From: Centroscyllium fabricii
Taxonomy: Eukaryota
Length of the DNA: 64,000 nucleotides
Assembly (NCBI GenBank): GCA_051313645.2
Contig: JBNRSN020000017.1
Location: 13,764,001 to 13,828,000 of the forward strand
Reading direction: 5' to 3'
The notes below the pieces were generated by a model. The model ran no database searches and was not told the origin of the DNA. It saw only the letters and a program-made list of their open reading frames with translations. Shown here piece after piece: positions 2,789-38,503 of this stretch (position 1 is its first letter; the number at the start of each line of letters is the position of its first letter). The position numbers and the translations under genes are program-made.

Positions 2789-3266
2789 GGGGAGGCGGTG
2801 GCGTAGTGGTTATGTCACTAGACTAGTAAGCCAGGGGCTCAGCCAAATGCTCTGACGATATGGGTTCAAATCCCACCACGGTAGCTGGTGGAATTTAAAT
2901 TCAATTCAATTTAATTCTGCAATTAAATGTTAGTCTTAGTAATGTCGACCATGATACCATTGTCGATTGTTGCAAAAACCCATCTGGTTCACTAATGTCC
3001 TTTAGGGAAGGAAATCTGCCGTCTTTACCCGGTCTGGCCTACATGTGACTCCAGACCCACGGCAATGTGGTTGACCCTTAATGCCCTCTGAAATGGCCTA
3101 GCAAGCCACTCAGTTGTAAACAACTGCTGCGAAAAACAATAAGACTGCAGCAGTTCAGGGAGGTGGCTCACCACCATCTTCTCAAGGGCAATTAGGGATG
3201 GGCACTAAATGCTGGCCTAGCCAGCCAGCGACGCCCACATCCCATCAACGAATAAAGAAAAAAAAA
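2789..3266 (+). mobile_element. tRNA-derived SINE (SacSINE1-like shark SINE), bipartite derivative of the LINE at 12383-20610
   Basis: A box TGGCGTAGTGG, B box GGTTCAAATCCC; body matches the reverse complement of ~20312-20610; last ~120 bp match the reverse complement of 12383-12503; A-rich tail. Confidence 0.9.
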
Positions 3267-4523: not shown

Positions 4524-4803
4524 TGTGGCGACACGCCCACCAGGACCATCGAATCCGCCTCGGGAGTACTGCGAGACAGCCCCGCCCGCCGGGCGGCGTG
4601 ATGACGTCACCGCGACTTCCGGCGTGATGACGTCGCCAGGTGGACACCCGGCAGTGACGTCACCAACCGCGGGTCCTTTAAATACCTTGGTTCCAGGTGG
4701 CTCAGTCTCTTTCGCTACCTGGCCATAGCTGAGTTAATATTAAATGATTGTTTTCCGAATCTTCTGTGTCCAGCGTGGTTCTTCAGGCCTGCATGCCTCT
4801 ACA
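4524..4803 (+). repeat. 5' LTR of Gypsy element 1
   Basis: Direct repeat of 8809-9088; TGTGG...TACA; contains TGACGTCA (CRE-like) motifs and TTTAAATA. Confidence 0.97.
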
Positions 4804-4899
4804 GTGGTGACCTCGACACTTGGAACGAATTCCAAGGGAACAATGAAGCAGTCGCTGCAGGACTGAGGGCCAAGCTGCCTCAGTTGAATCACAACCACC

Positions 4900-7800
4900 A
4901 TGCCAGCAGGGAGCCAAACAGCACGACTCCACAGACGGGGCCAAATCCCAAACTTACCAGAGTTCTGGGAACTCCGTCCAGCGGCCTGGTTCCTCAACAC
5001 AGAGAACACCTACCACATCCATGGCGTGCAGGGGGACGATCGATACAGCCTGCTCTTCGCGGCCCTTTCACAGCCCACGATCGACTGAATGTGGTCATCC
5101 ATACAGCACGAACCTACTGCTGGCAGGTATGAAACGCTTAAGGCCGCGCTGCTGCAAAAATTCACCCCCACCCAATTTGAGCGCGACTGCCAGCTCATTA
5201 ACCTCCCCGAACTCAGGGACGCAGACCCATCGGACCTCTGGGCCCAAATGGAAGCGCTCAATTGCGACCCGGCCACCATTAAGCGCGCCTTGTTCCTCCT
5301 TAAACTGCCTCCCTCCGTCAGACCGGCTCTGACGGTCCTTGAGCACTATACCAAAGAGCAACTGGCTCAGGAGGCCGACAAGCTGATGAGGGCCGAGCGC
5401 ACCCGAGCCGCCATGTGCCAACCCACCGCCGCTCCACCGGAGCAGTACTACGCGCACCCCAGACCCGGCCCCAGGTCCCAACCCAGACCGGTGCGGACCC
5501 ACAAAAAGCCACGCACCACAGGCCCCGGCTGGTGCTACTACCACACCAGGTTTGAAGCTAAAGCGCAGCGCTGCGTCCAGCCCTGCACCTTCAAACCCCA
5601 AACCAGCCCTAGCCCCACCATGTCCGTAGGCCGCTCCGGAGCACTGCTCTTCGTCACGGACAGTGGCTCAGACCTCCGCTTCCTCTGCGACACAGGCGCG
5701 CAGCACAGCATCGTGCCAGCCTCCCCCGCAGAAACCAAGCAAGGCACCCAAAGCCCACCACTCGAAGCAGCAAACGGCTCCGAGATAGTTACGTTCGGCA
5801 CCCGCCAGCTTACCATCAAGCTAGCAGGCCACACGTACAAGTGGGATTTCATCACAGCACAAGTCAAAATACCCCTACTCGGGGCCGACTTTCTGTGCGC
5901 CCACGGCCTACTGGTCGACGTTACCCGACGCCGCCTGGTCGACATCCACAACATGTCGACCATCCCATGCTCCACAGGGCCGGCACACCAGACCCACGCA
6001 GCGTCCCACTGCCGAGCCCGGAACTCCGACACGTACGCCACGCTCCTCGCGGAGTTCCCAGCCCTAACCAACCCCACCTTCACAGCCCGTACGGCCAAGC
6101 ACGGGGTGGAGCACCACATCACCACCACAGGCCCCCCAGTCCACGCCCACGCACGCAGGCTGGACCCGGCTAAGCTGGAGATCGCGCGCGCCGAGTTCCA
6201 CATCATGGAACAACTCGGCATAATCCGCCGCTCCAGCAGCCCCTGGGCCTCTCCCCTCCACATTGCCCCCAAACCCGGCGCCGGCTGGCGCCCCTGCGGA
6301 AACTACTGCCGCCTCAACAACGCCACCACCCCGGACAGGTACCCCGTCCCCCACATCCAAGACTTCTCAGCAAGGCTAGCCGGCTGCACGGTCTTTTCCA
6401 AGATCGACCTGGTACGGGGCTACCACCAGGTACCAGTGCACCCGGCGGACGTCCCTAAGACAGCCGTCTTTACCCCATTTGGATTATTTGAATTCCTCCG
6501 AATGCCCTTCGGACTCAAAAACGCGGCCCAGGCCTTCCAACGCCTCATGGACTCAGTCCTCCGGGACTTGCAGTTCACGTTCGTCTATCTAGACGACATC
6601 CTCGTGGCCAGCACCTCCCCCCAGGAACACCTCCTCCATCTCAGGGCCCTTTTCAACCGCCTGGCCGAACACGGCCTTATATTAAGCCCCTCCAAATGTC
6701 GATTCGGCCTCGAGACGATCGACTTCCTCGGCCACCACATCTCCCAGACCGGGGCCATACCCCTGCCCTCCAAGGTGCAGGCGGTCCAGGAATTCCCCCG
6801 CCCGCACTCCATCAAGGGGCTGCAGGAATTCCTCGGGATGGTTAATTTCTATAACCACTTCATCCCAGGAGCAGCCGCTCTCATGGCACCCCTCTACCAC
6901 GCCACCCGCGGCCAGTCCAACAAGGCTGCGGTCGAGTGGACGGCCGAAGCCTCCACCGCCTTTACCGCAACCAAAACCGCCCTGGCTAACGCCACGCTCC
7001 TAGCCCACCCTAGGCCCAACGCCAGAGTAGCCCTCACCACCGACGCCTCCGACCGCGCCGTCGGAGCAGTCTTTGAGCAGCGGACAGGCGACTCCTGGCA
7101 ACCCCTGGCCTTTTTCAGCCGACAACTCCGGCCCCCGGAGGTCAAGTACAGCGCCTTCGATAGGGAGCTACTCGCTCTCTACCTCGCGGTGCGCCACTTC
7201 CGCTTCCTCCTAGAGGGCCGCCACTTTACATCCTTCGTGGATCACAAGCCACTTGTGTCTGCAATGGCTAAGATCTCTGAACCCTGGTCGGCCAGGCAGC
7301 AGCGCCAGCTCGCGGCTGTGTCGGAGTTTACCACCGACATACAGCACATCACCGGCTGCGACAACGTGGTCGCTGACTGCCTCTCACGCCCCACCATCAA
7401 CTCCGTTCAAACGACCGTCGACTACGCCAAACTGGCGGCCGACCAACTGACCGACCCCGATCTGCTCGACCCAGCTACCAACCTCCCCGGCCTGCTCTTG
7501 GCCACCGTAGCACACGGGCCCACAGCCACGGAGGTCCGCTGCGGCGTCTCCCTCCCGCAGCCCGGACCCGTCGTCCCCCACACATGGAGACGACACATCT
7601 TCCAGACCCTCCATGACCTGTCCCACCCCGGTGTCCGCGCGTTCACAAAGCTGATCTCTGCGCGATTCGTTTGGCGCGGCCTGCGCAAGGATGTCCGCGC
7701 CTGGACCAACTCCTGCAATGCCTGCCAGCGCGCCAAGGTGCACAAGCACATCAAGGCACCAGTGGAAACGATCGCCATCCCAACTAGACGCTTCAGCCAC

Positions 7801-8712
7801 GTCCACATCGACCTGGTCGGACCACTACCACCATCACGGGGACATACACATGTCATGACCATGGTCGACCGCAGCACCCGCTGGCCAGAAGCGGTCCCCC
7901 TCACCGCTACCACCACCGCGGACCTGGCATGGGCCTTCATTGCCACCTGGGTCGCACGTTTCGGCGTCCACACCGACATCACATCAGACAGGGGCCCCCA
8001 ATTTACCTCAACCCTATGGGCAACCATCGCCCACGACCTCGGGGCAACCCTGCACCGAACCACCGCCTACCACCCACAGGCCAATGGCCTCTGCGAATGG
8101 TTCCACCGCTCCATCAAAGCTTCCTTGCGGGCCAGCCTCAAAGACGCGACCTGGACCGACCGCCTGCCCTGGGTAATGCTTGGCCTGCGTTCAGCGGCTA
8201 AGGAAGACCTGCACGCCTCAGCGGCGGAACTGGTCTATGGACAACCCCTAACCGTACCAGGCGAGTTCGTCGCACAAACCAACGAACCCTGGTCAGCCGA
8301 CCGCTGCCTCAAAGACTTCAATAACCAGGCAGCGGCGTTCAAACCACTTCCGGTGGCCCGGCACGGAGAGCCGGTAGCACGTGTTCCAGACGGCATCGAA
8401 AATGCCAAGTATGTGTTTGTCCGCCACGACGCACATCGAACACCACTACAGCCACCGTACGACGGACCGTACAGAGTGCTTCGGGCGGGACCTAAAACGT
8501 TCCAGATTAAAATGGGCAACAGAGCTGAGACTGTCTCAATCGAACGGCTCAAACCGGCACATGTAATGGCGGGTGAGACAACAGTCCCCGCGCAGCCACC
8601 AAAGCGCGGATGCCCTACCGCACCAAAGCCCGCCCACACTCCCACGCAGAACAAGGAGCAGCGCACGACACGTGCTGGCCGCATCATCAGGCCACCTCAA
8701 CGCCTCGCCTGA
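4900..8712 (+). pseudogene. Gag-Pol polyprotein (Gag-PR-RT-RNaseH-IN) with one in-frame stop
   Basis: 4900-5088 and 5089-8712 are the same frame separated by TGA; CYYH-x9-C-x3-C, CDTGA, YLDD, TDAS RNase H, HHCC + D,D,E integrase and GPY motif. Confidence 0.93.
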
Positions 8713-8808
8713 GACTCAACTTTTATGCTCCATTTTTTAATTTTACTTTATGCTCCTTTCTACTTTAGCTTAAACTTCGCTCTCCCTCACGGATTCTGGG
8801 GGGAGCTG

Positions 8809-9088
8809 TGTGGCGACACGCCCACCAGGACCATCGAATCTGCCTCGTGAGTACTGCGAGACGGCCCCGCCCGCCGGGCGGCGTGATGACGTCACCGCGA
8901 CTTCCGGCGTGATAACGTCGCCAGGTGGACACCCGGCAGTGACGTCACCAACCGCGGGTCCTTTAAATACCTTGGTTCCAGGTGGCTCAGTCTCTTTCGC
9001 TACCTGGCCATAGCTGAGTTAATATTAAATGATTGTTTTCCGAATCTTCTGTGTCCAGCGTGGTTCTTCAGGCCTGCATGCCTCTACA
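8809..9088 (+). repeat. 3' LTR of Gypsy element 1
   Basis: Direct repeat of 4524-4803, preceded by a PPT and followed by TSD ATAC. Confidence 0.97.
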
Positions 9089-10250
9089 ATACAATGGATA
9101 ACCATAGCCAGAAGAATGCAGATGAGTGCCTTGCTCGAGCTGTATATGCAAAAGGCTCACCCCTCATGCTCACAGCCAATGTGTACTGGAAGAGATTTTT
9201 CAATGTTATTCACCCTGCATACTGTCCTCCCACCAGACATGCTTTGTCTACTTATTTGCTGGAGGCTGAGTATAACAGAGTCCAAGGAAAGCTCAAAGAA
9301 ACGATAGCGATGGCAGACTGTGTTGCAGTTATCTCAGATGGGTGATCAAATGTACGATGGGAGGGCATCATAAACTACATCGTCTCTACTCCTCTCCCAG
9401 TGTTCTTCAAGAGCACAGACACGAAGGACAACAGACACCCGGGCACATACATTGCTGATGAGCTGAAAGCGGTCATCAACGATCTTGGATCACAAAAGGT
9501 CTTTGCAGTAGTTACTGACAATGCTGCGAATATGAAGGCTGCTTGGGCTCAAGTGGAGGAGGCCTACCCTCATATTACGTCTATTGGGTGTGCAGCTCAT
9601 GGGCTTAACCTGCTCCTCAAGGACATCATGGGTTTGAGAACCATGGAAGCACTGTACAAGACAGCCAAGCAGGTTGTTAAGTATGTCAAGGGAAAACAGG
9701 TAGTTGCAGCAACCTACAACTCCAAGCAAGTGACAAAGAACAAGAACACCACACTGAAGCTGCCCAACAATACCAGATGGGGTGGTGTTGTCATAATGTA
9801 CAACAGCCTTCTGGAGGGTAAGGAGTCGCTGCAAGAAATGGCAATATCCCAGTCTGGGGATATGGAAACCACCATCAAGAAAATACTGCTGGATGATGTG
9901 TTTTGGGAGAGAGTGGTTAGCAGCCTTAAACTACTCTCACCAGTAGCATCTGCAATTGCTCAGATTGAAGGAGATGACGCTGTCTTGTCAGATGTTCTCA
10001 GGCTTTTTACTGATTTAAAAGAACAACTCAGCATTGACCTACCCACATCCCTGCTGCTCAAAGCAGAGGAGAAGGCAATTGTTCAATTCATACAGACGCG
10101 TCAAGAATTTTGTGTCAAGCCGATTCATGCTGCAGCATACATGCTGGACCCAAAGCATGTTGGGAGACCAATACTTATAACCTAAATAAAGTTTTCAAAG
10201 CCTGTTTTTATTTGTATGGACAAATAATTTATTTTGATGACAAAGATAAT

Positions 10251-11013
10251 GGCCCAGAAATTGCAGTGGAGCCTTCGTGCGGGTGCAGTACCTGCTTAAC
10301 GCACTTTAATTGCCCATATTCAGTTTTGCTTTTTTGCACTGAGAAATTCCCGTTAGCTCAGCCTGTCAGAGCTCCATGCGAGGTTCATGGGCATCTGAAG
10401 GGCGTAATTAGTGCGAGGCGGCTTTTGAGACCACGTGATTGGCAGGGAGCCAATCAGTGGAAGCAATTCTCCGTTCAAAACTTCCACAGAGAAATCTGCG
10501 AGTTTTGAATGGAGAGATTCCCAAAAGACATCTAAACACAAAAATAAAATTTTACAAACACCACATTTTTTAAACATTACCCCAACTAACACAAATAACC
10601 TATTTTAAAGAAAAAATAAAAATTTGCAGAAATTTTTTTCAACTTCAAACAGGTCTAAAAAAATACTTACCTGTCTTTAAAGTTATCAACAATTAAAAAC
10701 CTGAAAAAACAACAATTAAAATCAATAAAATACACACTTACCAGATAAAAACGGGTGTTTACGACTCCTATTTTCCAGCGTTGAATTTTCTGCTCTTGGT
10801 CCGTAGAGAAACTGAAAAAAAATATCGGAATGACTGGATGATCACGTAGTTCGCTGCTTCCTGCGCTGGACCTCGCAGGAAGCAGCGACCCCCCCGCTGG
10901 GTGGCACAGGAAAACCCGAAGCGTGCGCTACCGGCTGCTTCCTGCGGGTTTAAGCTCTGGTGCGCTCGCACCAGAGCTTAAACCCGATATGCGCAGACTG
11001 CAATTTCTGGGCC
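10251..11013. mobile_element. Non-autonomous PIF/Harbinger-type MITE (copy 1) inside the hAT element
   Basis: TIRs GGCCCAGAAATTGCAGT / ACTGCAATTTCTGGGCC; AAT/ATT flanks; near-identical copy at 36983-37728. Confidence 0.85.
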
Positions 11014-13107
11014 ATTATAAGGGTCAGAGACAAAAACCATCAGTCTGCCAAAAAACTCAAAATTCCCATAAATTCCCAAAATTCCCATAAATTCCTGAAA
11101 ATTCCCATGGAAAGTTTCCTCTTTTAAAAATTCCCGGAATTTTGCAACCCTAACAGCAATTCTTATTTTTTTAACAACGTTGATTTAAAAAAAAATTATG
11201 GTGATATACCCCACAGTACATAAAGGTTGCAAAATGTACCCAACTCACAACATATCAGAAATAGAAACTGAAATTACTGGAAACACTCAACAGGCAGGCA
11301 GCATCTGTGGAAAGAGGAAGGTAAGGTTAACATTTCAAGTCTTATGACCCTTGTATCAGACACTCGCAAAATGGCATTAAAACAGACACTCAAAGCCACT
11401 TCAGCTATGGCTGAGTTAGTTATTTAATTATTTATGCTTGCATTTTATTTCATTAAATTAACTGTTGTTTGGAACTAAATGATAATTATCCTAAACATTA
11501 CCCCTCCAAAATTTCAACAACTGCCACATGTTCTATAGTATGTTGTGTAAGGCCATTGGTGCCTCCTCCAGAATACAATACCAGATATTATCCTTCGTGT
11601 ATAAACATGGGCACCGACTCCCCACACTTACTTTACTGAAACCAGCTTTCTTAACTTGACAGCGCATTTGTAGGTCCACCTAGCAGTCAGGAGAGTCTGT
11701 AGTTTGCGGTATTTCTAATGTTACTTAGGAACAGAGAGGTGGGAAAAGATGAAAGCTGCAAGGAACTACAACCATTATGCAGGAAGGTAAAAATATTGAG
11801 AATCAGAGAGAAAACAAAGTACTTAATAAAGGGCTAAAAAGATTGCACTTTGATCCACTTTATTTATTCCCTGGAGTCTTGGGTTTGAAATCTAGCCCAA
11901 GAACAGGAACCAGTAATTGTGTTTGGGTTACTTTAAAAAAAAACAGTTAATTGTTGTTACTAAACCTCGTGGTGCTATAGCAACTGCCTTACAAAATGAA
12001 GGGTTTAGTTGACATTGTTGTGTTCATAAGTGGCTGCGAAATTAATTGCTGCTATGAATTTTAATGCAGTATGGAGTAGTACCGAGAAAATATAGTTCTG
12101 TTTACACTGTTGCCAACATTAAAGTAGATCAAACTTGACTTCAATTATGATGATCCAAACTCTACCTCTCGGAGCTTCAGTTTTACACCAGGTGATATTA
12201 CTGGTTACTATGCATGTTTTCAGTTTGCATGCCCCTTGGTAAAGAACAGGAAATCATCATTGGACATTTATATTACCTGGAAACAAACATTCAACTCCCA
12301 CTACCTAAACTGACTTGGAGGAAACAAAACTGAAATGTTTACTTCCACCAATTAGTTTCCTTCCCCGTTGGCCTTCCCTCAATTTTTTTTTTAATTCATT
12401 GATGGGATGTGGGCGTCGCTGGCTGGCTAGGCCTGCATTTAGTGCCCATCCCTAATTGCCCTTGAGAAGATGGTGGTGAGCCACCTTCTTGAACCGCTGC
12501 AGTCCATATGGTGTAGGTACACCCACAATGTTGTTAGGAAGGGAGTTCCAGGATTTTGGCCCAGCGACAGTGAAGGAGCGGCGATACAGGTCCAAGTCAG
12601 GATGGTGTGTGGCTTGGAGGGGAACTTGTAGGTGGTGCTGTTCCCATGCGTCTGCTGCCCTTGTCCTTCTAAGTGGTAGAGGTCGCGGGTTTGGAAGGTG
12701 CTGTTGAAGGAGCTTTGGTGAGTTGCTGCAGTGCATCTTGTAGATGGTACACACTGCAGCCACAGTGCGCCGGTGGTGGAGGGAGTGAATGTTGAAGGTA
12801 GTGGATGATGCGCTAATCAATTACGCCAGTCTTTGGCGAATCGTAATCAAAGGCTTTTATTCGCTAAGAACAAGACCTGGTCCGCGATGAGTCCCGCCCG
12901 GAATGAGAGTCAGGTGGGTGGAGCATCCTCCTTTATACTCATACCCGGAGGCGGGATCAGCTGGTCCAGGTCCTTACAGAAAGGAACAACTTTATTAGCA
13001 CAAACTATATACAATAATAACACAGTGTGAACTACACTAAATGGTTCACCACATTCACCCATTCCTTAAAAAACAAGTCCCACGGGGCGAACATCAGCAC
13101 TGCGTTA

Positions 13108-16100
13108 TCAGTCTTTGAGGAGGTCGAACAGTCCGAGAAGACCTGCGAAGCAATGGCGATTCACATGAAAAAGCGGGAGTAATCGCAATCGGAAAAGATG
13201 CTGACGGAGCTCCCGAAGTGAACAGGGACTCCACCGGTGGAAGAGTAGGTTCATACGCAGGAAGATCTGGTGGAGGTGTAGCAGCCGCCGGAGGTTGAGC
13301 AACGTGATGAACTCCGTCGTGCATTGTAGGTGGCAAGGGCCCCGATGTAATGTGCGCGGTGAATGAAAAGTAGGCCCCTGTTGTGGAAGTGCGACCTGGG
13401 AGGGCAAGGGCTCCGCCAACAACTCCCCATGAACGTCTCCAGCGGGCGCGAGGTCTCTAATCGAGACGGTATCCTCACGCCCGTCTGGGTACTCCACGTA
13501 AGCGTACTGAGGGTTGGCATGCAGCAGGCACACACGTTCAACAAGAGGGTCCGTCTTGTGCCCCCGGACATGTCTACGAAGCAGGACCGGCCCCGGGTTG
13601 GTAAGCCACGTCGGCAGCGACGTCCCCGAAGTCAATTTCCTGTGGAAAGAGAAAAGTCTCTCGTGAGGAGTGCAACCGGTAGCTGTACACAAAAGGGAAC
13701 GAGTAGCGTGGAGCGCATCCTGGAGGACCTCCTGCCAGTGGGAGGTTGGAAGGCCTTTGGATCGAAGGGCCAGAGAAATGGCCTTCCAGATGGTCCCATT
13801 AAACCGCTCTACCTGGCCATTCCCCCGGGGGTTGTAACTGGTCGTTCTGCTCGAGGCAACCCCCCTCGCGAGCAGAAAGTGACGCAGTTCGTCGTTCATA
13901 AAAGAGGACCCCCGGTCGCTGTGTACGAAGCCGGGGAGGCCGAAAATGGCGAATAGCGTGATAAAATGCTTTATCACTGTTGCACTCGTCATATCTGTGC
14001 ATGGGAATGCAAAAGGGAAACGGGAGAACTCGTCGACCACAGTGAGGATGTACGAGTAACGATTGGTAGAGGGGAAGGGACCTTTAAAGTCCACACTCAG
14101 GCGCTCGAATGGGCGGGTGGCCTTGATGAGGTGCGCCCTGTCAGGCCTGTAAAACTGGGGCTTGCACTCAGCACAGACAGGGCACTCCTGCGTCATCGCC
14201 TTGATCTCTGCAATGGAATAAGGGAGATTGCGTGATTTGACGAAGTGAGTGAGCCTGGTGACCCCCGGGTGGCAGAGATTAGCGTGGAGGGTCTTCAGAC
14301 TACCCGACTGGGCACTGGCACACGATCCTCGGGACAGGGCGTCCGGGGGATCATTAAGCTTCCCTGGCCGGTACAGAATGTCGTACTCAAAGGCGGAGAG
14401 TTCGATCCGCCACCTGAGGATCTTGTCATTCTTGATCTTACCCTTCTGTTTATGGTGGAACATAAACGCTACTGACCGCTGGTCAGTAAGAAGGGTAAAA
14501 CGCTTACCGGCCAAATAGTGGCGCCAGTGGCGCACTGCTTCCACAATTGCTTGGGCCTCTTTTTCCACTGAAGAGTGGCGGACTTCAGGGCCCTGTAGGG
14601 TACGGGAGAAGAAAGCAACGGGCCTGCCTGCCTGGTTGAGGGTGGCGGCCAGGGCGAAGTCTGAGGCGTCGCTTTCGACCTGGAAGGGGAGAGACTCATC
14701 AATAGCGTGCATGGTTGCCTTGATGATGTCCTGCTTAATATGTGAAAATGCAATTTGGGCCTCTAATGGGAGCGGGAAGGAGGTAGCTCTGAGGAGAGGC
14801 CGGGCCTTATCAGCATAATGGGGAACCCATTGTGCATAATACGAGAAAAACCCCAGTCATCTCCTCAAAGATTTGGGGGAGTGCGGCAGAGGCAGTTCCT
14901 GAAGGGGGCGCATACGTTCGGGATCAGGACCGAGGACCCTGTTCTCAATTACGTAGCCGAGGATAGCCAACCGGTTAGTGTTGAAAACACACTTATCCTC
15001 ATTGTAAGTGAGGTTCAGACGCTGGGCCGTATGGAGAAACCTGTCCAAATTGGCATCGTGATCTTGCTGATCATGGCCGCAGATCGTGACATTGTCCAAA
15101 TACGGGAATGTGGCTTGCAAATGGTACTGGTCAACCATTCGGTCCATCTCCCGTTGGAAGACCGAAACTCCATTGGTAACCCCAAAGGGGACCCGGAGGA
15201 AGTGAAAAAGGCGCCCATTTGCCTCAAAGGCAGTGTATTTATGGTCCTCAGCTCTGATGGGGAGCTGGTGATAGGCCGACTTAAGGTCGATGGTGGAGAA
15301 GACCTTATACTGGGCAATCTGGTTGACCATATCATTTATCCTAGGAAGCGGATAAGCGGATAAGCGTCGAGCCCAGTATAGCGGTTAATGGTCTGACTAT
15401 AGTCAATGACCATGCGCTGTTTGTTGCCCGACTTAACCACTACCACCTGGGCCCGCCACGGGCTGTTACTGGCCTCGATGATGCCCTCCCGCAACAACCG
15501 GGCAACCTCTGCCTTAATAAAGGTGCGGTCCCCCGCGCTGTATCGCCGACTCTTGGTTGCAATGGGCTTGCAGTCAGGGTCAAGGTTGGCGAACAGCGAG
15601 GGGGGGTCTATCTTCAAGGTAGACAGACCGCAAGAGGAGTGTGGTTGTGAGGCAGGGCAGTCACAGCTGCTGACCGTGAGAGGAGGCAGGGGACCACCGT
15701 ATGCCATCGTTAAGCTCTGCAGATGGCACTGGAAATCCAGGCCAAGCAACACAGGGGCACAGAGCTGTGGGAGGACGTACAGTGGAAAGTTGCGGTATGT
15801 CGTCCCCTTCACGGTAATGGTGACTGTACAGCAGCCGATGACGTCCATAGTCTGGGACTCGGAGGTGAGGGAGATTTTACGATGCGTGGGCCTAACCCTG
15901 AGGGAACAACGGCGCACTGTATCAGGGTGTATAAAGCTCTCCGTACTCCCAGTGTCGAACAGACAGCGGGTGAGGTGCCCCTCCACCCGGGTGGTCATTG
16001 TTGATAAAGTAAGAGACGGGTTCGGTGCCGTAGAGGCAAGTGTGGTGTGCGCGCTGGGGCCCTTGTGCGATGCAGGGTCCGTGGTTGGTGGCGGCGCCCG

Positions 16101-17622
16101 TGATTCGTACGTGGCGGGCCGCAGTGGTGTTTCGGACCAGTGGGTGAGTCTCCGAGAATGCCGTCGGGAAGACCGAAGGGCTCGCGGCGCAGCAGCAGCG
16201 CCCGGATGCTGAAGTGGTCTGGAGTAGTCTGTTGCAGCTGCCAGGACCACTGAGGTTGATTTAAAGTTACTAGTTGCTGCAGCAGCCTGTGCTTTAAAGA
16301 TCTTCCTATACAAAGATGGCTTCGGGCCCTCCGCTGTAGGTATGCAGGCCGTCCTGCACCAAGATGGCGTCGGCACGTGATGGGGCGGGACCGCTGATGC
16401 CGTGACGCGATCAGATGGTGGCATCACGTGATGGGGGGAACCGCTGCTGCCGTGACGCGGAGAGACGGCGGCGTCACGTGATGGGGCGGGGCCTCTGCCG
16501 CCCGTTCGGTCGTCGTCACGTGATGGGGGGACCGCTGGTGACGTGACGCGGGGAGACGGCGGCGTCACGTGATGGGGCGGGGCCTCTGCCGCCCGTTCGT
16601 GCCATTCCAGCCATGAAGAAGGCCGCGCCCCCCAAAGATGGCGACGGCGCCCACGTTTCAACTGAAGAGGAAGACAGCAGAACGCGGGAAATGGCGCTGG
16701 CAGGCCGCACCCGAGGCAAGGTAGGTAATAGTTTCTTAGAAAAACGCTGTTGGGGGGCGCCAGGTACCTGAGGCCACTCTGTGGCGTAGAGATCGCAGGC
16801 TGCAGCCGTTTTCTTAGCAGATTCCGGGGCCGATTGGCAGACCTTCGCAAAGTGGCCCTTCTTGCCACACCTGGAGCAGGATGCCGACTTCGCTGGGCAG
16901 GAGCTTCGTGGGTGGCGTTTTTGGCCACAAAAATGGCATTTCAGGGGCGCTGGCTGTCCGGATGGCGCCGTGGCCGCCACGGTTGCCGTCGAGGGCGTTA
17001 AACGTGAGTCCCAAGGCCCTAGGGAAACCGTGTGGGAGCCGTGCCCCGTGTACGAATCCAGGCTGTGGAGTGCCCCATCCACCGCATTGGAGAGCTTCAC
17101 CGCCTGGTTCAGGGACAAATTATCCTGCTCGAGCAGGCGGGTGCGTGCTGGGGCCGATCGGATTTCTGCCATGTAGGCATCGCGGACGAGGAGGTCCATG
17201 TGCTCCTGGGCGTTAACGGGTGCACATTCGCAGCGCAGAGCGAGAGCCTGAAGAGCCTCCAGGTACTCCTCGTTTGACTCACCAGGCTGTTGCCTCCGCG
17301 TGGCGAGTAGATGGCGAGCGTAGACGGCATTGACAGGCTGGAGGTACCGAGCCCACAGCAGCTCCAACGCTGCATCATAATCAGTGGCGTTCTTGATGAT
17401 TGCATAGACCCTGCCACTGACGCAGGAGACTAGGACCCGTCTCCTGTGCGTATCGCTGACTCCGGCCACCACCAGAAACGACTCGAAGCAGCTCAGCCAG
17501 TGCTCGAAGTCGTTCGAAGCGTTCAGTGCTTGGGGGTTGAGGTCGAGAGTCTTTGGCTTGAGGATCGATTTCCAGGTGTCTGGTGCAGCTGGCTGTTGGC
17601 TCTGTCCTTGCTCATCACCCAT
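13108..17622 (-). pseudogene. gag-pol of Gypsy element 2 (Gag with two zinc knuckles, PR, RT, RNase H, integrase), disrupted
   Basis: Gag 16516-17622 (CHFC..H..C, CSRC..H..C); FDTGS protease; RT IDLKSAYHQ...YLDN; SDAS RNase H; integrase SVDFKGP/HSDRG/GQVER; 7-bp duplication frameshift near 15355 and stop at 14857. Confidence 0.92.
16370..16600. repeat. Degenerate GC-rich tandem repeats at the gag/pro junction of element 2
   Basis: Five copies of CACGTGATGGGG(C/G)G with shared flanking CGGCGT / GACGCG segments. Confidence 0.8.
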
Positions 17623-20600
17623 TGTAAATCTTAGCGAATAAAATTGATGCGCTAATCAATTACGCCAGTCTTTGGTGAATCGTAATCAAAGGCTTTTATT
17701 CGCTAAGAACAAGACCTGGTCCACGATGAGTCCCGCCCGGAATGAGAGTCAGGTGGGTGAAGCATCCTCCTTTACACTCATACCTGGAGGCGGGGTCAGC
17801 TGGTCCAGGTCCTTACAGAAAGGAACAACTTTATTAGCACAAACTCTATACAATAATAACACAGTGTGAACTACACTAAATGGTTCACCACAGTGGATGG
17901 AGTGCCAATCAAGCGGCCTGCTTTATCCTGAATGGTGTCGAGCTTCTTGAGTGTTGTTGGAGCTGCACTCATCCAGGCAAGTGGAGAGTATTCCATCACA
18001 CTCCTGACTTGTGCCTTGTAGATGGTGGAAAGGCTTTGGGGAGTCAGGAGGTGAGACACTCACCACAGAATTCCCAGCCTCTGGCCTGCTCTTGTAGCCA
18101 CAGTATTTATATGGCTGGTACAGTTCAGTTTCCGATCAATGGTAACCCCCAGGATGTTGATAGTGGGGGATTCAGCGATGATAATGCCATTGAATGTCAA
18201 GGGGAGATGGTTAGAGTCTCGCTTGTTGGAGATGGTCATTGCCTGGCACTTGTGTGGTGCGAATGTTACTTGCCACTTGTCAGCCCAAGTCTGAATGTTG
18301 TCCAGGTCTTGCTGCATATGGACACGGACTGTGTCAGTATCTGACAAGTCTCGAATGGTGCTGAACAGTGTGCAATCATCAGCGAACATCCCCACTTCTG
18401 ACCTTATGATGGAGGGAAGGTCATTGATGGAACAGCTGAAGATGGTTGGGCCTAGGACACTGCCCTGAGGAACTCCTGCAGTGATGTCCTGTGGTTGAGA
18501 TGAATGACCTCCACCAACCACAGCCAACTTCCTTTGTGCTAGGTATGATTCCAACCAATGGAGAGTTTTCCCCTTGATTCCCATTGACTTCAGCTTTGCC
18601 AGGGCTCCTTGATGCCACACTTGATCAAATGCTGCCTTGATGTCAAGGGCAGTCACTCTCACCTCACCTCTTGAGTTCAGCTCTTTTGTCCATGTTTGGA
18701 CCAAGGCTGTGATGAGGTCAGGAGCTGAGTGGCCCTGGCGGAACCCAAACTGGGCATCAGTTAGCAGGTTATTGCTGAGTAAGTGCCGCTTGATAGCACT
18801 GTCGATGACACCTTCCATCACTTTGCTGATGATTGAGAGTAGACTGATGGGACGGTAATTGGCTAGTTCTGGAGTACAAGTCTTCAGTACTATTGCCGGA
18901 ATGTTGTCAGGGCCCATAGCCTTTGCAGTATCCAGTGCCTTCAGCCGTTTCTTGACATCACGTGGAGTGAATTGAATGGGCTGAAGACTGGCATCTGTGA
19001 TGCTGGGGACCTCAGGAGGAGGCCGAGATGGATCATCCACTCGGCATTTCTGGCTGAAGATAGTTGCAAATGCTTCAGCCTTGTCTTTTGCACTCACGTG
19101 CTGGGCTCCACCATCGTTGAGGATGGGGATATTTTTGGAGCCTCCTCCTCCTGTTAACTGTTTAATAGTCCACCACCACTCACGACTGGATGTGGCAGGA
19201 CTGCAGAGCTTTGATTTGATCCGATGGTTGTGAGATCGCTTAGCTCTGTCTATCGCATGTTGCTTCTGTTGTTTGGCATGCAAGTAGCCTCACCAGGTTG
19301 ACACCTCATTTTCCGGTATGCCTGGTGCTGTTCCCGGCATGCTCTCCTGCACTCTTCGTTAAACCAGGGTTGATCTCCCGGCTTGATGGTAATGGTAGAG
19401 TGAGGGATATGCCGGGCCATGAGGTCACTGATTGTGGTTGAATACAATTCTGCTGCTGCTGATGGCCCACAGCGCCTCATGGATGCCCAGTTTTGAGTTG
19501 CCAGATCTGTTCGAAATCTGTCCCATTTAGCACGGTGGTAGTGCCACACAACATGGTGGAGGGTATCCTCAACATGAAGATGGGACTTCGTCTCCACAAG
19601 GACTGTGCGGTGGTCACTTCCACCAATGCTGTCATGGACAGATGCATCTGGAGCAGGTAGATTGGTGAGGACGAGATCAAGTAGTTTTTTCCCTCTTGTT
19701 GGTTCTCTCACCACCTGTCGCAGACCCAGTCTGGCAGCTATGTCCTTGAGGACTCGGCCAACTCGGTGAGTTGTGGTGCCATCGAGCCACTCTTGGTGAT
19801 GGACATTGAAGTCCCCCACCCAGAGGACATTTTGTGCCCTTGCTACTCTCAGTGCTTCTTCCAATTGATGTTTAACATGGAGGAGTACTGATTCATCAGC
19901 TGAGGGAGGGCGGTAGGTGGTAATTAGTAGGAGGTTTCCTTGCCCATGTTTGACTTGATGCCATGAGACCTCATGGGGTCCTGAGTCAATGTTGAGGACT
20001 CCCAGGGCTACTCCCTCCCGACTGTACACCACAGTGCCACCACCTCTGGTGGGTCTGTCCTGCCGGTGGGAATGGTGATGCCCAGGAATGGTGATGCTGG
20101 TGTCTGGGACATTGGCTGTAAGGTATGATTCTGTGAGTATGACTATGTCAGGCTGTTGCTTGACTAGTCTGTGGGACAGCTCTCCCAATTTTGGCACAAG
20201 TCCCCAGATGTTTGTGAGGAGGACTTTGCAGGGTCGACAGGGCCGGGTTTGCCGTTGACGTTGTCGTTTCCGGTGCCGAGGTCGATGCCGGGTGGTCCGT
20301 CCGGTTTTATTCTTATTGTTTTTTGTAGCGGTTGTTTACAACTGAGTGGCTTGCTGGGCCATTTCAGAGGGCATTAAGAGTCAACCACATTGCTGTGGGT
20401 CTGGAGTCACATGTAGGCCAGACCAGGTAAGGACGGCAGATTTCCTTCCCTAAAGGACATTAGTGAACCAGATGGGTTTTTGCAACAATCGACAATGGTA
20501 TTATGGTCGCCATTACTAAGACTAACATTTAATTGCAGAATTAAATTGAATTGAATTTAAATTCCACCAGCTGCCGTGGTGGGATTTGAACCCATATCCT

Positions 20601-21088
20601 CAGAGCATTAGATTATTATCTCAGCATGTGGGTACCCACAAATGCAACATATTGATGCATTACTACGCACCCCATAAACCAGCTTTTTAAGAAAAATGCT
20701 TTAAGTATTAAGAGTAGCCACTGAGTATTTTAGCCAATTCACACAATTCGTGAGAGTGTCCTTTGGTAGGGGTGTCCAAGCTTTTTGCCTTTGTCGATTG
20801 CAAAATAAGGTTGAATGCACATTCCTGTTTATTTGCATCTATCTGGAGGCAATTTGCCTGTGCCTTGAGATAATTTGCGTGTATCTGAAGAAGGCTAAAC
20901 GATGTTGGCCCGGAATTTGCGGTAGTATAACGGTGAGCCTGTCAGCGGTCGCCGTGATTATTGGGTAAAACTGATAGCAACTTCTGGCATCCACACCTGC
21001 GCAGCTAAAAGCGGAAATCTGGATGTTGCTGTCAGGGATACCCGGCTCCTGCACAAGGTGCACTGTTGAAGTCTTCGCAGATGGAATA

Positions 21089-21417: not shown

Positions 21418-21710
21418 TCTATCCACATAGAATCACTGATTTACAATGAACTTAAACTAATTACTCACTATTCTCACTGTAAAGACCGATGAAAAACTTT
21501 AGCCTTACTTCCTGCTTTGCCATTTGTGAGAATTCTTCAACTGATTGGTTGATCAGTCTCCCTGCTGCCTGCTCTGTTCCCAGACCCAACAGACTCCCTG
21601 TAGAAGGTTAAAACTGATGTCAGAAAAGAGGAAGTCTACGCTCTTGAGCCTGCTAAAACTTTCTGGCCAGCTTTTTCCGAGCTGAATTGCGAGTGCCATT
21701 TATTCGCCGC

Positions 21711-21947
21711 TGGCGTATCGTCAATCGAACGCAAAAGACAAGTAGTTACCCAAACTATAGGCTTTTATTCACTTACAATGGAGCTGGTCTCCTGTCGAGT
21801 TCAAGGCGAGAGTGAGCGGGGTCAGGGCAGCCCTCACCTATATGCTCCGACCTGAGGGGAGGAGTTAGGGGTGTGGCTGACCTGGCCTAGCATACAATGT
21901 CAAGGTGAGCACATCACTATATACAATGGTAATACACGATTACCACA
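21711..21947 (-). mobile_element. Solo LTR
   Basis: TG...CA, 5-bp TSD GCCGC, similar to 33390-33670, 53092-53391 and 54402-54652. Confidence 0.9.
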
Positions 21948-22330
21948 GCCGCTAACCGCAAAATCCGGGCTGCTGTGATTTAACATTTATCGACTTATTG
22001 AAACAACAGCCCTTTCCAAAACTTCAAACTCACGAACTTCAAATAGGATGAACCAGTAAATAAGACATATGTGCCAGTAAATTGCCTGAGCTTGAAATGC
22101 AGGATTGTTGGATTCCAGAGACCACGTGTAATCCTAGAAGTGCAAGTTGGACAACCTTGCTTTATGGTATATTGATACTTTTCTAATTCTTGCAAACAAT
22201 ACTAATCATAATTTAATAATGAAATAAAAACATGCAACAAGCAAAAGGATGTCTTCTAAAATCTGTCTGCAGAGCAATCACGGTTTCATGTCCTCTGGAT
22301 TATCTTCTTGTCAGAATAAGCCAAGTACAC

Positions 22331-22645
22331 GGGCGGCACGGTGGTACAGTGGTTAGCACTGTTGCCTCACAGCGCCAGGGGCACGGGTTCAAATCCAGCC
22401 TCGGGTACTATCTGTGTGGAGTTTGCATATTCTCCCCGTGTCTGCGTGGGTTTCCTCCGGGTGCTCCGGTTTCCTCCCAGTCCAAAGATGTGCGGGTTTT
22501 GTTGATTGGCCAGGATAAATTGACCCTTAGTGTTAGGGGATTGAATGTGAGGGGTTACGGGGATGGGGTGGGATATGTGTCGGTGCAGACTCGATGGGCT
22601 GAAATGGCCTCTATCTGCACTGTAGGGATTCTACGATTCTATGAT
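22331..22645 (+). mobile_element. HE1-type V-SINE (short tail)
   Basis: tRNA head with A/B boxes, V-domain TGTGGAGTTTGCA..TCTCCCCGTGTCTGCGTGGGTTTCCTCC; (ATTCTATG)-like tail. Confidence 0.9.
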
Positions 22646-23086: not shown

Positions 23087-24300
23087 TTTTAAAAATTCGT
23101 TCACAGGATGTGGGCGTCGCTGGCAAGGCCAGCATTTATTGACCAACCCTAGTTGCCCTTGAGAAGGTGGTGCTGAGCCGCCTTCTTGAACCGCTGCAGT
23201 CCAAGTGGGGAAGGTACTCCCACAGTGCTGTTAGGTAGTATATTCCAGTATTTTGACCCAGCGAGGATGAAGGAACAGCGATATATTTCCAAGCCAGGAG
23301 GGTGAGTGACTTGGAGGGGAACTTGGAGGTGGTGGTGTTCCAATGCGCCTGCTGCCCTTGTCCTTCTAGGCGGTCGAGGTTACGGGTTTGTTGAAGAAGC
23401 CTTGGTGAGTTGCTGCGGTGCACCTTGTAGATGGTACACACTGTTGACACGGTGCGCTGGTGGTGGAGGGAGTGAAAATTTAAGGTGGTGCATAGGGTGC
23501 CAATCAAGCGGCTGCTTTGTCCTGGTTGGTGTTGAGCTTCTTGTTGGAGCTGCACTCATCCAGGCAAGTGGAGAATATTCCATCACACTCCTGATTTGTG
23601 CCTTGTAGATGGTGGAAAGGCTCTGGGAGTCAGAAGGTAAATCACTCGCCACATAATACCCAGCCTCTGACCTGCTCTTGTAGCCACAGTATTTATGTGG
23701 CTGGTCCAGTTAACTCACTGGTCAATGGTGACCGCCAGGATATTGATGGTGGGGGATTTGGTAATGCCATTGAATGTCACGGGGAGGTGGTTAGAATTTA
23801 TCTTGTTGGAGATGGTCATTGCCTGGCACTTGCATAGTGTGCATATTACTTGCCACTTACCAGCCCAAACCTGAATGTTGTCTAGGTCTTGCTGCTGGCA
23901 GGCACGGACTGCTTCATTATCTGAGGAGTTGCAAATGGAACTGAACACTGCAGTCATCAGTGAACATTCCCACTTCTGACCCTATGATGGAATGACGGTC
24001 ATTGATGAAACAGCTGAAGATGGTTGGGCCGAGGACACTGCCCTGAGGAACTCCTGCAGCAATGTCCTGGGGCTGAGATGGTTGGCCTCCAACAACCACA
24101 ACCATCTTCCTTTGTGCTAGGTATGACTCCAGCCAGTGGAGAGTCTTTCACCTGATTCCCATTGACTTCAATTTTACTAGGGTTCCTTGATGCCACACTC
24201 GGTCAAATGCTGCCTTGATTTCAAGGGCAGTCACTCTCACCTCAGCTCTGGAATTCAGCTTTTTTTGTCCATGTTTGGACCAAGGCTGTAATGAGGTCTG
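23087..24300 (-). mobile_element. Diverged 3' fragment of the same LINE family as 12383-20610
   Basis: GVPQGSVLGP..MFTDD, AWMSAAPT and the HHLLKGN terminus. Confidence 0.88.
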
Positions 24301-24319
24301 GGGCCGAAATTAAAACATT

Positions 24320-25153: not shown

Positions 25154-25940
25154 ATTATTACATAACCAATAATGAAATGGAGCTATTTTCAAGGAAGCCG
25201 AACTTTTGCAGAATTACAAAACCCAACCACAAGCAAAACCTGTTAAAAAGAATCATGATGTGCACTTGATAAAACCAACCACAAGCTCTTACAATAAGCT
25301 CTCCCACAACTGGTGCTCGTAAATGACTGTGTTGAGTCAAAACCTGTTGTTCATTTGTGTTTAATTATCTTCTGAAGAAGCCAGTTTTGTGGAGGCCAAA
25401 GATTAGTGCAGCCTTACTGACATCTTACAAAGAGGGGCGGAGGCCAAAGTGTCTAACAAATTTGTTTTCAACAATAGAAGTGGGAGTTTTTGAGGTCAGT
25501 TTACTCACGATTCTCAGCCTTGAAATTAACATCCAGTATTGTGCAACATTATTCTGGTAATAACACCATGCCATTGAACAGCATTGTTGATCAAGTGGAA
25601 AGTACTTCATGTGTGGGCATGATGTTATTACAGCCATTCGTTTTTATGGTTGTTACAGTATATTCATTTAATTAGACATGTTTATGAATTATTCATAAGC
25701 AAATGAACAACAGATGTCAGAGGATTTGGAATCAACTTAGTCTAAATTATTTATTTTTTGGGAATGTATTGCATTTGTTATACAAGGGAATGAACTGTAA
25801 ATAAGGCAAACAACATTAAATAGTTTAGTATTGTTAGGAACTTAAACAAATTGTTTAATGGATTCAATGCCTCATGCTGAGTTTTCAGAGCTTCACCATA
25901 AGTCCCGTTTCTTCATAATCCTTGCTATAATTTATAATCG

Positions 25941-26080
25941 CTCGATAGGGATCGAGGGATATGGGGACAAGGCAGGGACAGGGTACTGGGTTTAGATGAT
26001 CAGCCATGATCTCATTGAATGGCGGAGCGGGCTCGAAGGGCCGAATGGCCTACTCCTGCTCCTATCTTCTATGTTTCTAT
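25941..26080 (+). mobile_element. 5'-truncated HE1/CR1 tail
   Basis: GGGATCGAGGGATATGGGG...CTCCTGCTCCTATCTTCTATGTTTCTAT. Confidence 0.8.
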
Positions 26081-26837
26081 AATTTGATGTTGGATGTGGG
26101 CATAATGTTTCAGGGATTTAAAATATCACCCCGAACATAGGTTTGATGCAGCCCTAAAATTCAGACTTGGACAGAAGCAAGCTGTGCAGCCTTGAAAGAA
26201 TACAATGGAGAGAAGATGTAATAGAGACATATGAGATAGCAAATGGTATTGAAAAGGTAGATCAGGAGCATTATTTCATATTAAACTGGCAGTAGGAAAA
26301 GCGAGAAGTAGTTGTGAGGGCAGTAGCAGGTTTTGACGGTGTGAGTGCAAGCAGAGAAGAGATACAGTGAAGTGTTCCCTTGAGACTTGAGGCGTGCCAG
26401 TGGGCAGTAAAGAATTGAGATTGCTGAGGCTAAAGTGGACTTTGTGCAGAGTATGAGAGATGTGAAAGAGAGTCTTGCCTTGGTAGTCCTGGTCAGTTTG
26501 TTAATATATTTTTCTGCACTGCAGCCAGGCCCTGGAGATAATTCTGGTCACATTAGCATTTTCTGCTACCATTCCCTTTGCCCGTTGACTGATTTGTCTT
26601 GGCACCCACCGTACATCCATGCGGAAGAGTACCTCTTTCCTGCTGGGCACATGCTCAGTCAGCATCTTGTTGGGAAAATGCTCTGTAAATAGCCTGATAT
26701 GTTCTTAAAATGGAGTTTCAGCTTAAAAGGTGTCCAACAGAATGGAGTCAGTTGTCAAACTGAATGCTGAAAATCGAAACGACTTAAAATCGCGGCGAGG
26801 CTTACATAAACAGAACATTCTTTACCAATGATAAGAT

Positions 26838-27324: not shown

Positions 27325-27490
27325 NNNNNNNNNNNNNNNNNNNNNNNNNNNNNNNNNNNNNNNNNNNNNNNNNNNNNNNNNNNNNNNNNNNNNNNNNNNN
27401 NNNNNNNNNNNNNNNNNNNNNNNNNNNNNNNNNNNNNNNNNNNNNNNNNNNNNNNNNNNNNNNNNNNNNNNNNNNNNNNNNNNNNNNNNN
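27325..27490. other. Assembly gap
   Basis: Run of N. Confidence 1.
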
Positions 27491-27601: not shown

Positions 27602-27927
27602 AACATAGAAAAAAACACAGAAGATAGGAGCAGGAGTCGGCCATTCGGCCCTTCGAGCCTGCTCCGCCATTCAATGAGATCATGGCTGATCATCCAAACC
27701 CAGTACCCTGCCCCTGCCCTCTCCCCATATCCCTCGATCCCTATCGAGCCTCCATCGACACATATCCCACCCTATCCCCGTAACCCCACATATTTAATCC
27801 CCCTAACACTAAGGGTCAATTTATCCTGGCCAATCAACCTAACCCGCACATCTTTGGACTGTGGGAGGAAACCGGAGCACCCGGAGGAAACCCACGCAGA
27901 CACGGGGAGAATGTGCAAACTCCACAC
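27602..27927 (-). mobile_element. HE1-type V-SINE, 5'-truncated
   Basis: Reverse complement of the V-domain and CR1-type tail. Confidence 0.88.
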
Positions 27928-31286: not shown

Positions 31287-31508
31287 TGTGGAGTTTGCAC
31301 ATTCTCCCCGTGTCTGCGTGGGTTTCCTCCCACAGTCGAAGGATGTGCGGGTTAGGTTGATTGGCCAGGATAAATGGACCCTTAGTGTTAGGGGGATTAA
31401 ATGTGTGGGGGTTACGGGGATAGGGTGGGATATGTGTCGGTGCAGGCTCGATGGGCCGAAATGGCCTCTATCTGCACTGTAGGGATTCTATGGTTCTATG
31501 ATTCTATG
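31287..31508 (+). mobile_element. HE1-type V-SINE, 5'-truncated, short tail
   Basis: V-domain plus (TTCTATG)-type tail. Confidence 0.85.
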
Positions 31509-32610: not shown

Positions 32611-33389
32611 TTATGTTCCCCCAATAGGTATGGGAGTTTTTGGTGGTCGTTCAAATTTTTGAATTCAGGGCATGTTGTTGCAAATTTTGGGAAGAAATTT
32701 CCCCTTATTCCCTGATAGTTTTCTATTGATTTGCTATTTGCTGTTTTACACAATTGCCCAAAGTCAAAATTCCCCCCAATATCTCAGCAGTCTATTACAC
32801 CAACAAGCAGAGAAAGGGAAACTCATGCCCATTGATTGTATTGGGATAACCTATGGATGACACTGTGGTGTCTGGTCCTGTGAAAATGACTTGGCACATT
32901 ACTTGATCAGAGTGGATAACTCAAGGGCGATCCCCTCAATTGCCTTATCATTCTTCCCATGATTGAAAGATCTGTTCTCACGAGACTCAAAGAATATTCT
33001 GCAAATGGGGGTCACCAGGGAAGTCTTTGCATCCCTAGACAATCTTCAGCTGTTAGTCATGCTGTGGGATTGGAGGCACGTCTGTGTGGAAGTGGGATGG
33101 CTGTCTTTTCCTGGACACACATTTTTCCACCTGATTCCTCTCTTTTCCTAAACCTCTAGGTAGTACAAACAGACTACATATGGACCAGGCAGAACTCCTT
33201 CCGATCACCTTGCACTGACGTGGTTCTTGATGTTCTTGGCAATAAGCCAAATCTCTGTTTCTCTATCCGTTTAATAAGGCCCTCCTTGGCTGGGGGAGTC
33301 CAGTTTAGTGTTCAGGTTTAGTATGGTAACTGGCAGGAATTAAAAGAGTGGTGTGTGTCCATGTCTAACCTCTCTGCTATGTGGGGTTC

Positions 33390-33670
33390 TGACGTATCGT
33401 CAATAATACAAAGACGAGTAGTTACCTTAACTATAGGCTTTTAATAACTTAAAGATGGAGCTAGTCTCCAGTTGAACATCGAGTACAGAATGAATGGGGG
33501 CAGGGCAGACCTCACCTATAAGGCTCTCACCTGAGAGGAGGAGTCAGAGGTGTGGCTGACCTGACCTCACGACAGTGTTCTATACAATACCATATACAGT
33601 ACACCCAGCCACTATACATGCTGGTCTGTGGTGTAACCCAACTATATACAATGGTAATATGATTACTACA
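33390..33670 (-). mobile_element. Solo LTR
   Basis: TG...CA, 5-bp TSD GGTTC. Confidence 0.92.
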
Positions 33671-38490: not shown

Positions 38491-38503
38491 TATGTACATT
38501 TAT

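Follow-up and report, generated by a model that had tools for sequence, protein, structure and literature searches.

A Zenon retrotransposon of sharks and rays with a tRNA-like head at its 5′ end, and its possible transcription by RNA polymerase III

A 64,000-nt stretch of contig JBNRSN020000017.1 of Centroscyllium fabricii (to be referred to as the window) contains, on its minus strand, a long interspersed element (LINE) that begins with part of a tRNA-like sequence, and, on its plus strand, a short element that begins with a more complete form of the same sequence. We identify the LINE as an elasmobranch Zenon, decayed and slightly truncated at its 5′ end, with one endonuclease-reverse transcriptase (EN-RT) frame, no first open reading frame (ORF1), a poly(A) tail and a length of ~3.3 kb. 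The features of the two elements, and two further copies of the LINE, are given below (UTR, untranslated region; LTR, long terminal repeat).

20311-20609, minus strand: 5′ end of the Zenon copy, comprising the tRNA-like head's 3′ half, an AT-rich segment, a conserved body of ~150 nt and an A-rich spacer; 96% identical to 2846-3144.
20582-20592, minus strand: B box of the LINE copy, GGTTCAAATCC, an exact match to the consensus.
20336-20374, minus strand: short upstream frame in the phase of the endonuclease, with ATGs at 20374 and 20362 and a stop at 20338-20336; the start is not conserved.
20213-20310, minus strand: linker in which the endonuclease frame is open, with the Arg-rich peptide RHRPRHRKRQRQRQ; probably a coding N-terminus.
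19250-20335, minus strand: APE endonuclease frame P0001 (PF14529, E 3.5e-13; PF03372, E 2.5e-10).
18060-19289, minus strand: reverse transcriptase frame P0002 (PF00078, E 7e-39).
12806-17892, minus strand: Gypsy-type LTR retrotransposon inserted in the LINE, with a 5-bp target duplication (TCCAC) and LTRs that are 97% identical.
12383-12805, minus strand: 3′ piece of the LINE copy, with the end of the ORF (stop 12454-12452), a 3′ UTR of ~60 nt with hairpins and a poly(A) tail (12392-12383).
2789-3266, plus strand: short element, read here as an internally deleted derivative, with head, body and spacer (2789-3144), then the LINE's final 17 codons, its 3′ UTR and its poly(A) (3143-3266).
2795-2883, plus strand: tRNA-like head of the short element, with an A box (2799-2809), an anticodon-type loop CTAGTAA, an extra hairpin and a B box (2863-2873).
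58978-59515, minus strand: young, 5′-truncated copy of the same LINE (98%), with poly(A) at 58978.
23095-24307, minus strand: older, 5′-truncated copy of the same LINE (85%).

The LINE copy spans 20609-17893 and 12805-12383, and comes to ~3,320 nt once the missing 57 nt of the head and the gaps are added back. The inserted Gypsy-type element has a short internal tandem duplication of its own, at 16362-16599. The EN and RT domains of the LINE lie in consecutive frames that are split by one frameshift, which points to a single APE-RT ORF originally. The endonuclease frame is closed by a frameshifting deletion of ~13 nt near 19285 (compared with P0005 and P0018). The reverse transcriptase frame has an internal deletion of 38 codons, seen as a gap against P0005, and a premature stop at 18062-18060. 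Because of these three lesions, we judge the copy (20609-12383) to be dead.

The 3′ piece is 97.9% identical to 58980-59417 of the young fragment, and its 3′ UTR has a fold with a z score of −2.66 against mononucleotide shuffles. The tail of the LINE is poly(A) and not a microsatellite (12392-12383; also at 58978 and 3266); the window's CR1-like fragments terminate in short repeats instead. Protein searches gave at least 150 representatives, with shark gene models at 70-89% identity, and the motifs of the window are confined, over the first 400 nt of the published rows, to those that are named Zenon. A single APE-RT frame, a poly(A) tail and the lack of an ORF1 are features of the Zenon family (PMC13343379), and the survey in that paper describes an ORF1 in none of its Zenons. 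The absence of ORF1 is ordinary for Zenon. Apart from its decay, the locus is, by its structural features, an ordinary member of elasmobranch Zenon (CR1 group). Zenon had earlier been noted in the whale shark genome, and the elements were described in 2026 (PMC13343379).

A search of the PDB found distant reverse transcriptases only. The body motif has no match in bacterial and archaeal genomes, where the reverse transcriptase search gave two distant RT loci and thus no stray copy. Several public shark gene models (P0005, P0007, P0015, P0017, P0018, P0030 and P0034) include pieces of the LINE as predicted exons. The affected models include an aldo-keto reductase, CWC25, a vesicular transporter and a peptidase, either as annotation errors or through exonisation.

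The 5′ end of the LINE copy (20609-20311, minus strand) aligns with 2846-3144 (plus strand) of the short element at 96.0% identity over 299 bp (blastn within the window, E 7e-139), and the head and the endonuclease frame of the LINE have the same sense. The B box GGTTCAAATCC is located at 20592-20582 in the LINE copy and at 2863-2873 in the short element. The A box TGGCGTAGTGG is found at 2799-2809 in the short element only, as 57 nt are missing from the start of the head in the LINE copy (counterpart 2789-2845). The patterns used for both boxes are consensus patterns. For an exact pair of A and B boxes no more than 90 nt apart, the chance expectation in the window is 0.001. There is no poly(A) or other tail at the join of head and endonuclease in the LINE copy. 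Nine ATGs are present between 20609 and 20150, and none of them opens an ORF of more than 22 codons, which leaves no ORF1. An earlier note on this DNA had described these ~300 bp with their B box, in the sense of the endonuclease, had ascribed the missing A box to 5′ truncation, and had seen neither a tail at the join nor an ORF1. All of this is borne out, and the anatomy of a headed, ORF1-less LINE can be stated with high confidence.

There are differences from that note in the short element, which it had ended at 3142 and treated as a SINE (short interspersed element). The element continues through 3266, and 3143-3266 is the 3′ end of the same LINE. Its two parts are 96% identical to the 5′ end and 94% identical to the 3′ end of the LINE, and they meet at a 2-nt microhomology. 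In the tail, 105 of 112 positions are identical to the two young LINE tails, compared with 92 of 112 for the older copy, and the private letters of the young tails are shared. Because both parts come from the same young LINE subfamily, we conclude that the short element is an internal-deletion derivative of this LINE, and not an independent SINE that donated the head. By its organization it is a deletion derivative and a tRNA-headed SINE at once, with boxes inherited from its parent. As anatomy, the earlier description of a SINE-LINE chimera, in which an autonomous EN-RT retroposon is headed by a Pol III-type sequence (Pol III, RNA polymerase III), is correct; it needs mending as to the short element, which is not an independent source of the head.

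The short element has one copy in the window. A 7-bp inverted repeat (CTGCTGC at 3124-3130 and GCAGCAG at 3147-3153, plus strand) brackets its deletion junction. The LINE positions that match this repeat pair at 6 of 7 bases; the repeat may have guided the deletion, or may reflect chance plus CpG decay. SacSINE1 and the CmiSINEs of elephant shark were considered as identities for the short element and rejected, as their descriptions give them Deu or CORE bodies and L2 tails (PMC5499810).

The A and B boxes of the short element are 53 nt apart. With relaxed settings, ARAGORN calls a tRNA-Thr(AGT) at 2795-2883 from 87% of its threshold downward, and 2 of 500 shuffles are called at 85%. Rfam searches to E 10 of the head and of 20050-20700 gave chance-level matches only, and the head alone folds no better than shuffles (z 0.63). 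Among phage records, blastn with the head found only weak matches of 19-22 nt around the B box (E 0.07-3), four of five of them under annotated tRNAs. The head is tRNA-like but decayed, and its assignment to Thr is tentative.

The join of head and endonuclease was compared with the published rows of Supplementary Table 2 of Stuart et al. 2026 (PMC13343379), over the first 400 nt of each row. The elasmobranch Zenon rows are CarCar_Zenon-1, HypSab_Zenon-1, RhiTyp_Zenon-1, ScyCan_Zenon-1 and SquAca_Zenon-1, -2 and -3. By their row codes, these seven come from five species: great white, whale shark, catshark, spiny dogfish (three rows) and stingray. All seven (2,886-3,314 nt) start with a head of A-box/B-box type, followed by the body, the A-rich spacer and the linker. 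They are similar to the locus also in their single APE-RT frame, poly(A) tail, length of ~3.3 kb and lack of ORF1. A 20-nt motif of the window is present in these seven rows and in the first 400 nt of no other row. By eye, the A box is found in all seven and the B-box core in six, with varying sequence in between; some of this variation resembles a duplicated anticodon arm. The window copy is, again by eye, nearest to the SquAca rows close to the endonuclease start. The Zenon rows of hagfish (two) and coelacanth (one) start differently, without the head.

Protein records give a second view of the join. Of 178 proteins set against the locus, four continue from the body into the endonuclease, over these positions.

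P0056: from 20362, E 6e-48.
P0043: 20463-20422, then the endonuclease.
P0023: 20432-20339.
P0007, a Heterodontus model: 20370-20224, E 4e-9.

A search for longer proteins with residues 1-130 found one model, which starts at the endonuclease, and a protein search with the alternative frame over body and linker found no match.

The join could in principle be an accident of this locus, with a SINE inserted by chance just upstream of a truncated LINE. The repeat density of the window is the one point in its favor. The join has neither poly(A) nor another tail, however, and the short element bears this LINE's own tail with subfamily-specific letters. The same join in all seven elasmobranch consensus rows, and in four unrelated protein records, refutes a chance neighbor, which we regard as extremely improbable. 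Two findings would have undone the earlier description, a junction confined to this locus and other copies with an ORF1 and a different 5′ UTR, and neither was seen.

A second alternative is that the head belongs to a bipartite tRNA-SINE, made of a head, a LINE 5′ UTR and a LINE tail (as in the model of PMC5786205), while the autonomous LINE itself has its start downstream of the head. The shared 5′ UTR would then allow template switches or gene conversion that give rise to headed LINE copies such as this one, and the consensus rows would have taken their heads from the commoner SINE copies. Such SINEs are well documented for RTE and Vingi (PMC5786205), and Zenons serve tRNA-SINEs in bivalves (PMC11481361). 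The consensus rows were built by automatic extension from RT seeds (PMC13343379), and the window provides one genomic LINE copy with the head, a partial one. On the other hand, this copy, which has the head, is alone among the LINE copies of the window in extending to the 5′ region. The longest single insertions in three species (3,299, 3,299 and 3,322 nt) are as long as the headed consensus (3,288, 3,293 and 3,314 nt), with the meaning of this table column inferred from its title (PMC13343379). The start is identical in all five species, and an ORF free of runs of four T (see below) would be left unexplained. We consider the bipartite-SINE explanation improbable.

The linker covers ~100 nt between 20311 and the first Pfam-matched residue of the endonuclease (~20212). 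Its length agrees with the ~110 bp of linker in the earlier note, but it is probably more than a mere linker. It is open in the frame of the endonuclease and encodes a basic, Arg-rich peptide, RHRPRHRKRQRQRQ, which is also found in P0056, and basic leaders precede the endonuclease in several distant relatives, for example P0037, P0040, P0050 and P0071. These observations together suggest that the linker is probably coding.

The start of translation is less easily placed. The only ATGs in frame with the endonuclease are those at 20374 and 20362, and a stop follows them (20338-20336) in the window copy. In six of the seven consensus rows a stop likewise follows two codons past the second ATG. 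The spacer behind these ATGs is 29, 29, 29, 25, 28 and 21 nt long in six rows and 26 nt here, so that by eye the frame is kept in three of the six measurable rows. The ATG right behind the spacer, present in six of the seven rows, is out of frame. The in-frame ATGs at 20374 and 20362 were rejected as the true start on these grounds. Because they meet stops, and because the spacer length shifts the frame, a conventional AUG start seems unlikely in this family, and we infer non-AUG, cap-independent initiation. A 2A peptide was also rejected, as the motif DxExNPGP is absent before the endonuclease in all three frames. The Rfam scans of the head and of 20050-20700 to E 10 found no ribozyme family, although Rfam can miss divergent ribozymes. 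The body and linker fold no better than shuffles (z about −1.3).

Pol III of vertebrates terminates at runs of four or more T (T4). The elements of a type 2 Pol III promoter are both present in the short copy, and the LINE copy has the B box only. The sense strand of the LINE was scanned for depletion of T4 runs, as the earlier note had proposed, and it has none in 3,130 nt (P 0.009-0.08 depending on the null). In comparison, there are 13 runs of A4, 7 of C4 and 5 of G4 on this strand and 12 T4 runs on the antisense strand. The mean expectation is 4.6 in base shuffles (P 0.009) and 2.4 in dinucleotide shuffles (P 0.07). Within the coding part (757 codons), the P values are 0.046, 0.024 and 0.077 under three synonymous codon nulls, the last with Gypsy codons. 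Five control ORFs have 2 to 13 T4 runs each, near or above their null means. There are 13 such runs in 2,617 nt of the three CR1-like fragments, and 8 and 19 in two Gypsy elements. Over both strands of the window, no stretch without T4 is longer than the 3,048 nt of 20691-17644, which is the LINE plus the adjoining LTR; the next has 1,701 nt. By eye, the first 400 nt contain no T4 run in any of the seven elasmobranch rows, compared with runs of T4-T6 in all three other vertebrate Zenon rows. The absence of T4 runs and the kept boxes favor, at the level of sequence, the reading of the entire element by Pol III.

Transcription by Pol II is the other possibility for the headed Zenon. To our knowledge, and in line with the literature, every LINE promoter that has been tested is a Pol II promoter or yields a host co-transcript. 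The absence of T4 runs is not significant under the dinucleotide null or the Gypsy-codon null, and an AATAAA-like word is located upstream of the poly(A) in the short element. Three observations are difficult to accommodate with Pol II. The T4-free stretch falls together with the element, and the second longest in 128 kb of strand has little more than half its length. The many upstream ATGs, with no in-frame start, fit poorly with scanning from a cap. The boxes are kept in both sharks and ray. We hold Pol II to be the unlikely polymerase here, though by no means a negligible candidate.

The explanation that best accounts for these observations is that shark and ray Zenons are autonomous LINEs with a Pol III promoter, which would drive the full-length RNA; we put the probability of this at roughly 0.55. 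The extension that the same Pol III RNA would also serve as the mRNA is tentative, and we would not give it even odds. Taken as a whole, the proposal is of elasmobranch Zenons as autonomous LINEs that use a captured tRNA promoter to produce a full-length, protein-coding RNA by Pol III, with selection against T4 runs, with translation that needs neither cap nor AUG, and with activity since before the split of sharks and rays; such a LINE would amount to a SINE with a gene for its enzyme. The proposal too is put forward tentatively, with somewhat less than even confidence.

Several points weigh against Pol III transcription. The only LINE copy with a head in the window lacks the A box. Neither default ARAGORN nor Rfam at its gathering score calls anything in the window, the head included, and at 85% of its threshold ARAGORN makes 12 calls across the window. 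The tRNA-like part is reached above chance by none of the 178 proteins, and the protein evidence is thus for the body and not for the boxes. Abundant short derivatives could have shaped the 5′ ends of the consensus rows. The T4 result comes from one element and becomes borderline once the nulls are stricter (P 0.05-0.08), TT is scarce in the LINE to begin with (odds 0.78), and one T4 run is present in the 1,213 nt of the older copy. A sense strand poor in T is common among LINEs. Finally, LINEs are described as Pol II products, and Pol III processivity as a limit on length (PMC10886601, PMC5786205).

A mechanism can be proposed for a Pol III-transcribed Zenon. The head would have been acquired by an ancestor of the shark and ray Zenons, from a tRNA or from a tRNA-headed SINE, through a template switch or recombination, and would have been retained since then as an internal promoter. 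TFIIIC would bind the A and B boxes, and Pol III would initiate at the first base of the element and read all 3.3 kb, as the sense strand would have been purged of T4 terminators. It would pass the poly(A) and, as is the case for a SINE, end in the flanking DNA. Translation of the uncapped RNA would do without a conventional AUG start, probably aided by the conserved body and the A-rich spacer, and the protein would bind the 3′ hairpin and insert the RNA by target-primed reverse transcription. A deletion of any internal part would at once give a working SINE, provided that both ends are kept.

The elasmobranch lineage probably gained the head, because the other Zenons are without it, and the gain would precede the split of sharks and rays, because both have it. 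Both sources of the head, a template switch to a tRNA and recombination with a tRNA-headed SINE, are plausible. Switching of 5′ sequences is documented for plant RTE LINEs, and the addition of heads is documented for bipartite SINEs (PMC5786205).

The short element and the headed LINE can be compared with several known systems. Persaeus, a derivative of a lepidopteran Zenon (PMC6740152), is similar to 2789-3266 in that a 5′ UTR and ORF start are joined to an ORF end, 3′ UTR and poly(A). It is described as having no tRNA homology and no Pol III promoter, whereas 2789-3266 has A and B boxes; the origin is similar, but the short element is not Persaeus. The bipartite tRNA-SINEs Bov-tA, SINE2_Gav and CoeSINE4 (PMC5786205) likewise combine a tRNA head with LINE 5′ and 3′ parts. 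Their heads are on the non-autonomous form only, and the parent LINE has none, whereas in Zenon the autonomous form carries the head. RTE and Vingi were the sole donors of SINE bodies found in that survey. [quoted passage not shown] They belong to a different clade and host, and their tRNA-like sequence was set aside as noise in that paper.

R2 is a single-ORF non-LTR element; a polymerase other than Pol II makes its RNA, which is translated with neither a cap nor a conserved AUG. This RNA is a Pol I co-transcript from ribosomal DNA that is excised by a ribozyme, and R2 has a restriction-like endonuclease. In Zenon, by comparison, no ribozyme family matched in the 5′ region. Cassandra, Helenus and Ajax (TRIMp3; PMC10886601) are retroelements that, like the headed Zenon, have a captured small-RNA gene as a Pol III promoter. 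They differ in being short, non-coding and of LTR type, and their length ceiling of ~1.3 kb is ascribed to Pol III processivity (PMC10886601).

In the main text of the 2026 description (PMC13343379), ‘tRNA’ does not occur and ‘SINE’ occurs once, and the head, the boxes, the absence of T4 runs and the short derivative are not discussed there. In the open literature, with subscription papers, Repbase, Dfam and preprint supplements outside the scope, we found no description of a tRNA head on a shark Zenon or of an autonomous LINE transcribed by Pol III. The head on elasmobranch Zenon seems to be unreported so far.

The usual division assigns LINEs to Pol II, as mRNAs, and SINEs to Pol III, as short RNAs. 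If Pol III does transcribe Zenon, an abundant vertebrate LINE would be a natural Pol III mRNA, one that requires cap-independent translation in an animal cell. A table of PMC13343379 gives hundreds to thousands of near-full-length Zenon copies per genome. Deletion of the middle would be a one-step route to new SINEs, and the usual direction of borrowing between SINEs and LINEs would be reversed. Even under Pol II, there is a lesson for annotation, as the ‘SINE’ of this shark is the same sequence as the 5′ UTR of Zenon.

The window contains other repeats. The assembly has gaps (N runs) at 27325-27490 and 63695-63981. A second and commoner tRNA-SINE family is found at 56379-56771 (minus strand), 22330-22645, 27602-27927, 31287-31502, 38503-38904, 42631-43036, 58070-58394 and 25940-26091. 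Its A and B boxes are 33 nt apart, and it shares its tail with the CR1-like fragments at 1487-2079, 39786-40917 and 50816-51707. This family and its partner resemble the V-SINE HE1 and its partner.

Another Gypsy-type LTR retrotransposon is located at 4524-9088 (plus strand). Its LTRs are 98.6% identical, which indicates a young insertion, and it has an unbroken frame of 1,207 codons for protease, RT, RNase H and integrase (5089-8712). Four related repeats of ~190-240 bp (21710-21896, 33389-33619, 53153-53392 and 54456-54652) are 76-89% identical and look like solo LTRs. At 377-1564 (minus strand), a Gag-like frame with a terminal aspartyl protease is cut off by the region of a CR1-like fragment.

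Two DNA transposon-like regions are also present. A Harbinger-type DDE transposase frame (PF13359) at 46331-47374 (plus strand) faces long frames without a Pfam match at 48625-50799 (minus strand), which may be the partner gene of the transposase. A hAT-like frame (DUF659) is located at 9346-10185 (plus strand), and the 776-bp repeat that adjoins it (10243-11016) recurs at 36975-37731 with 94% identity.

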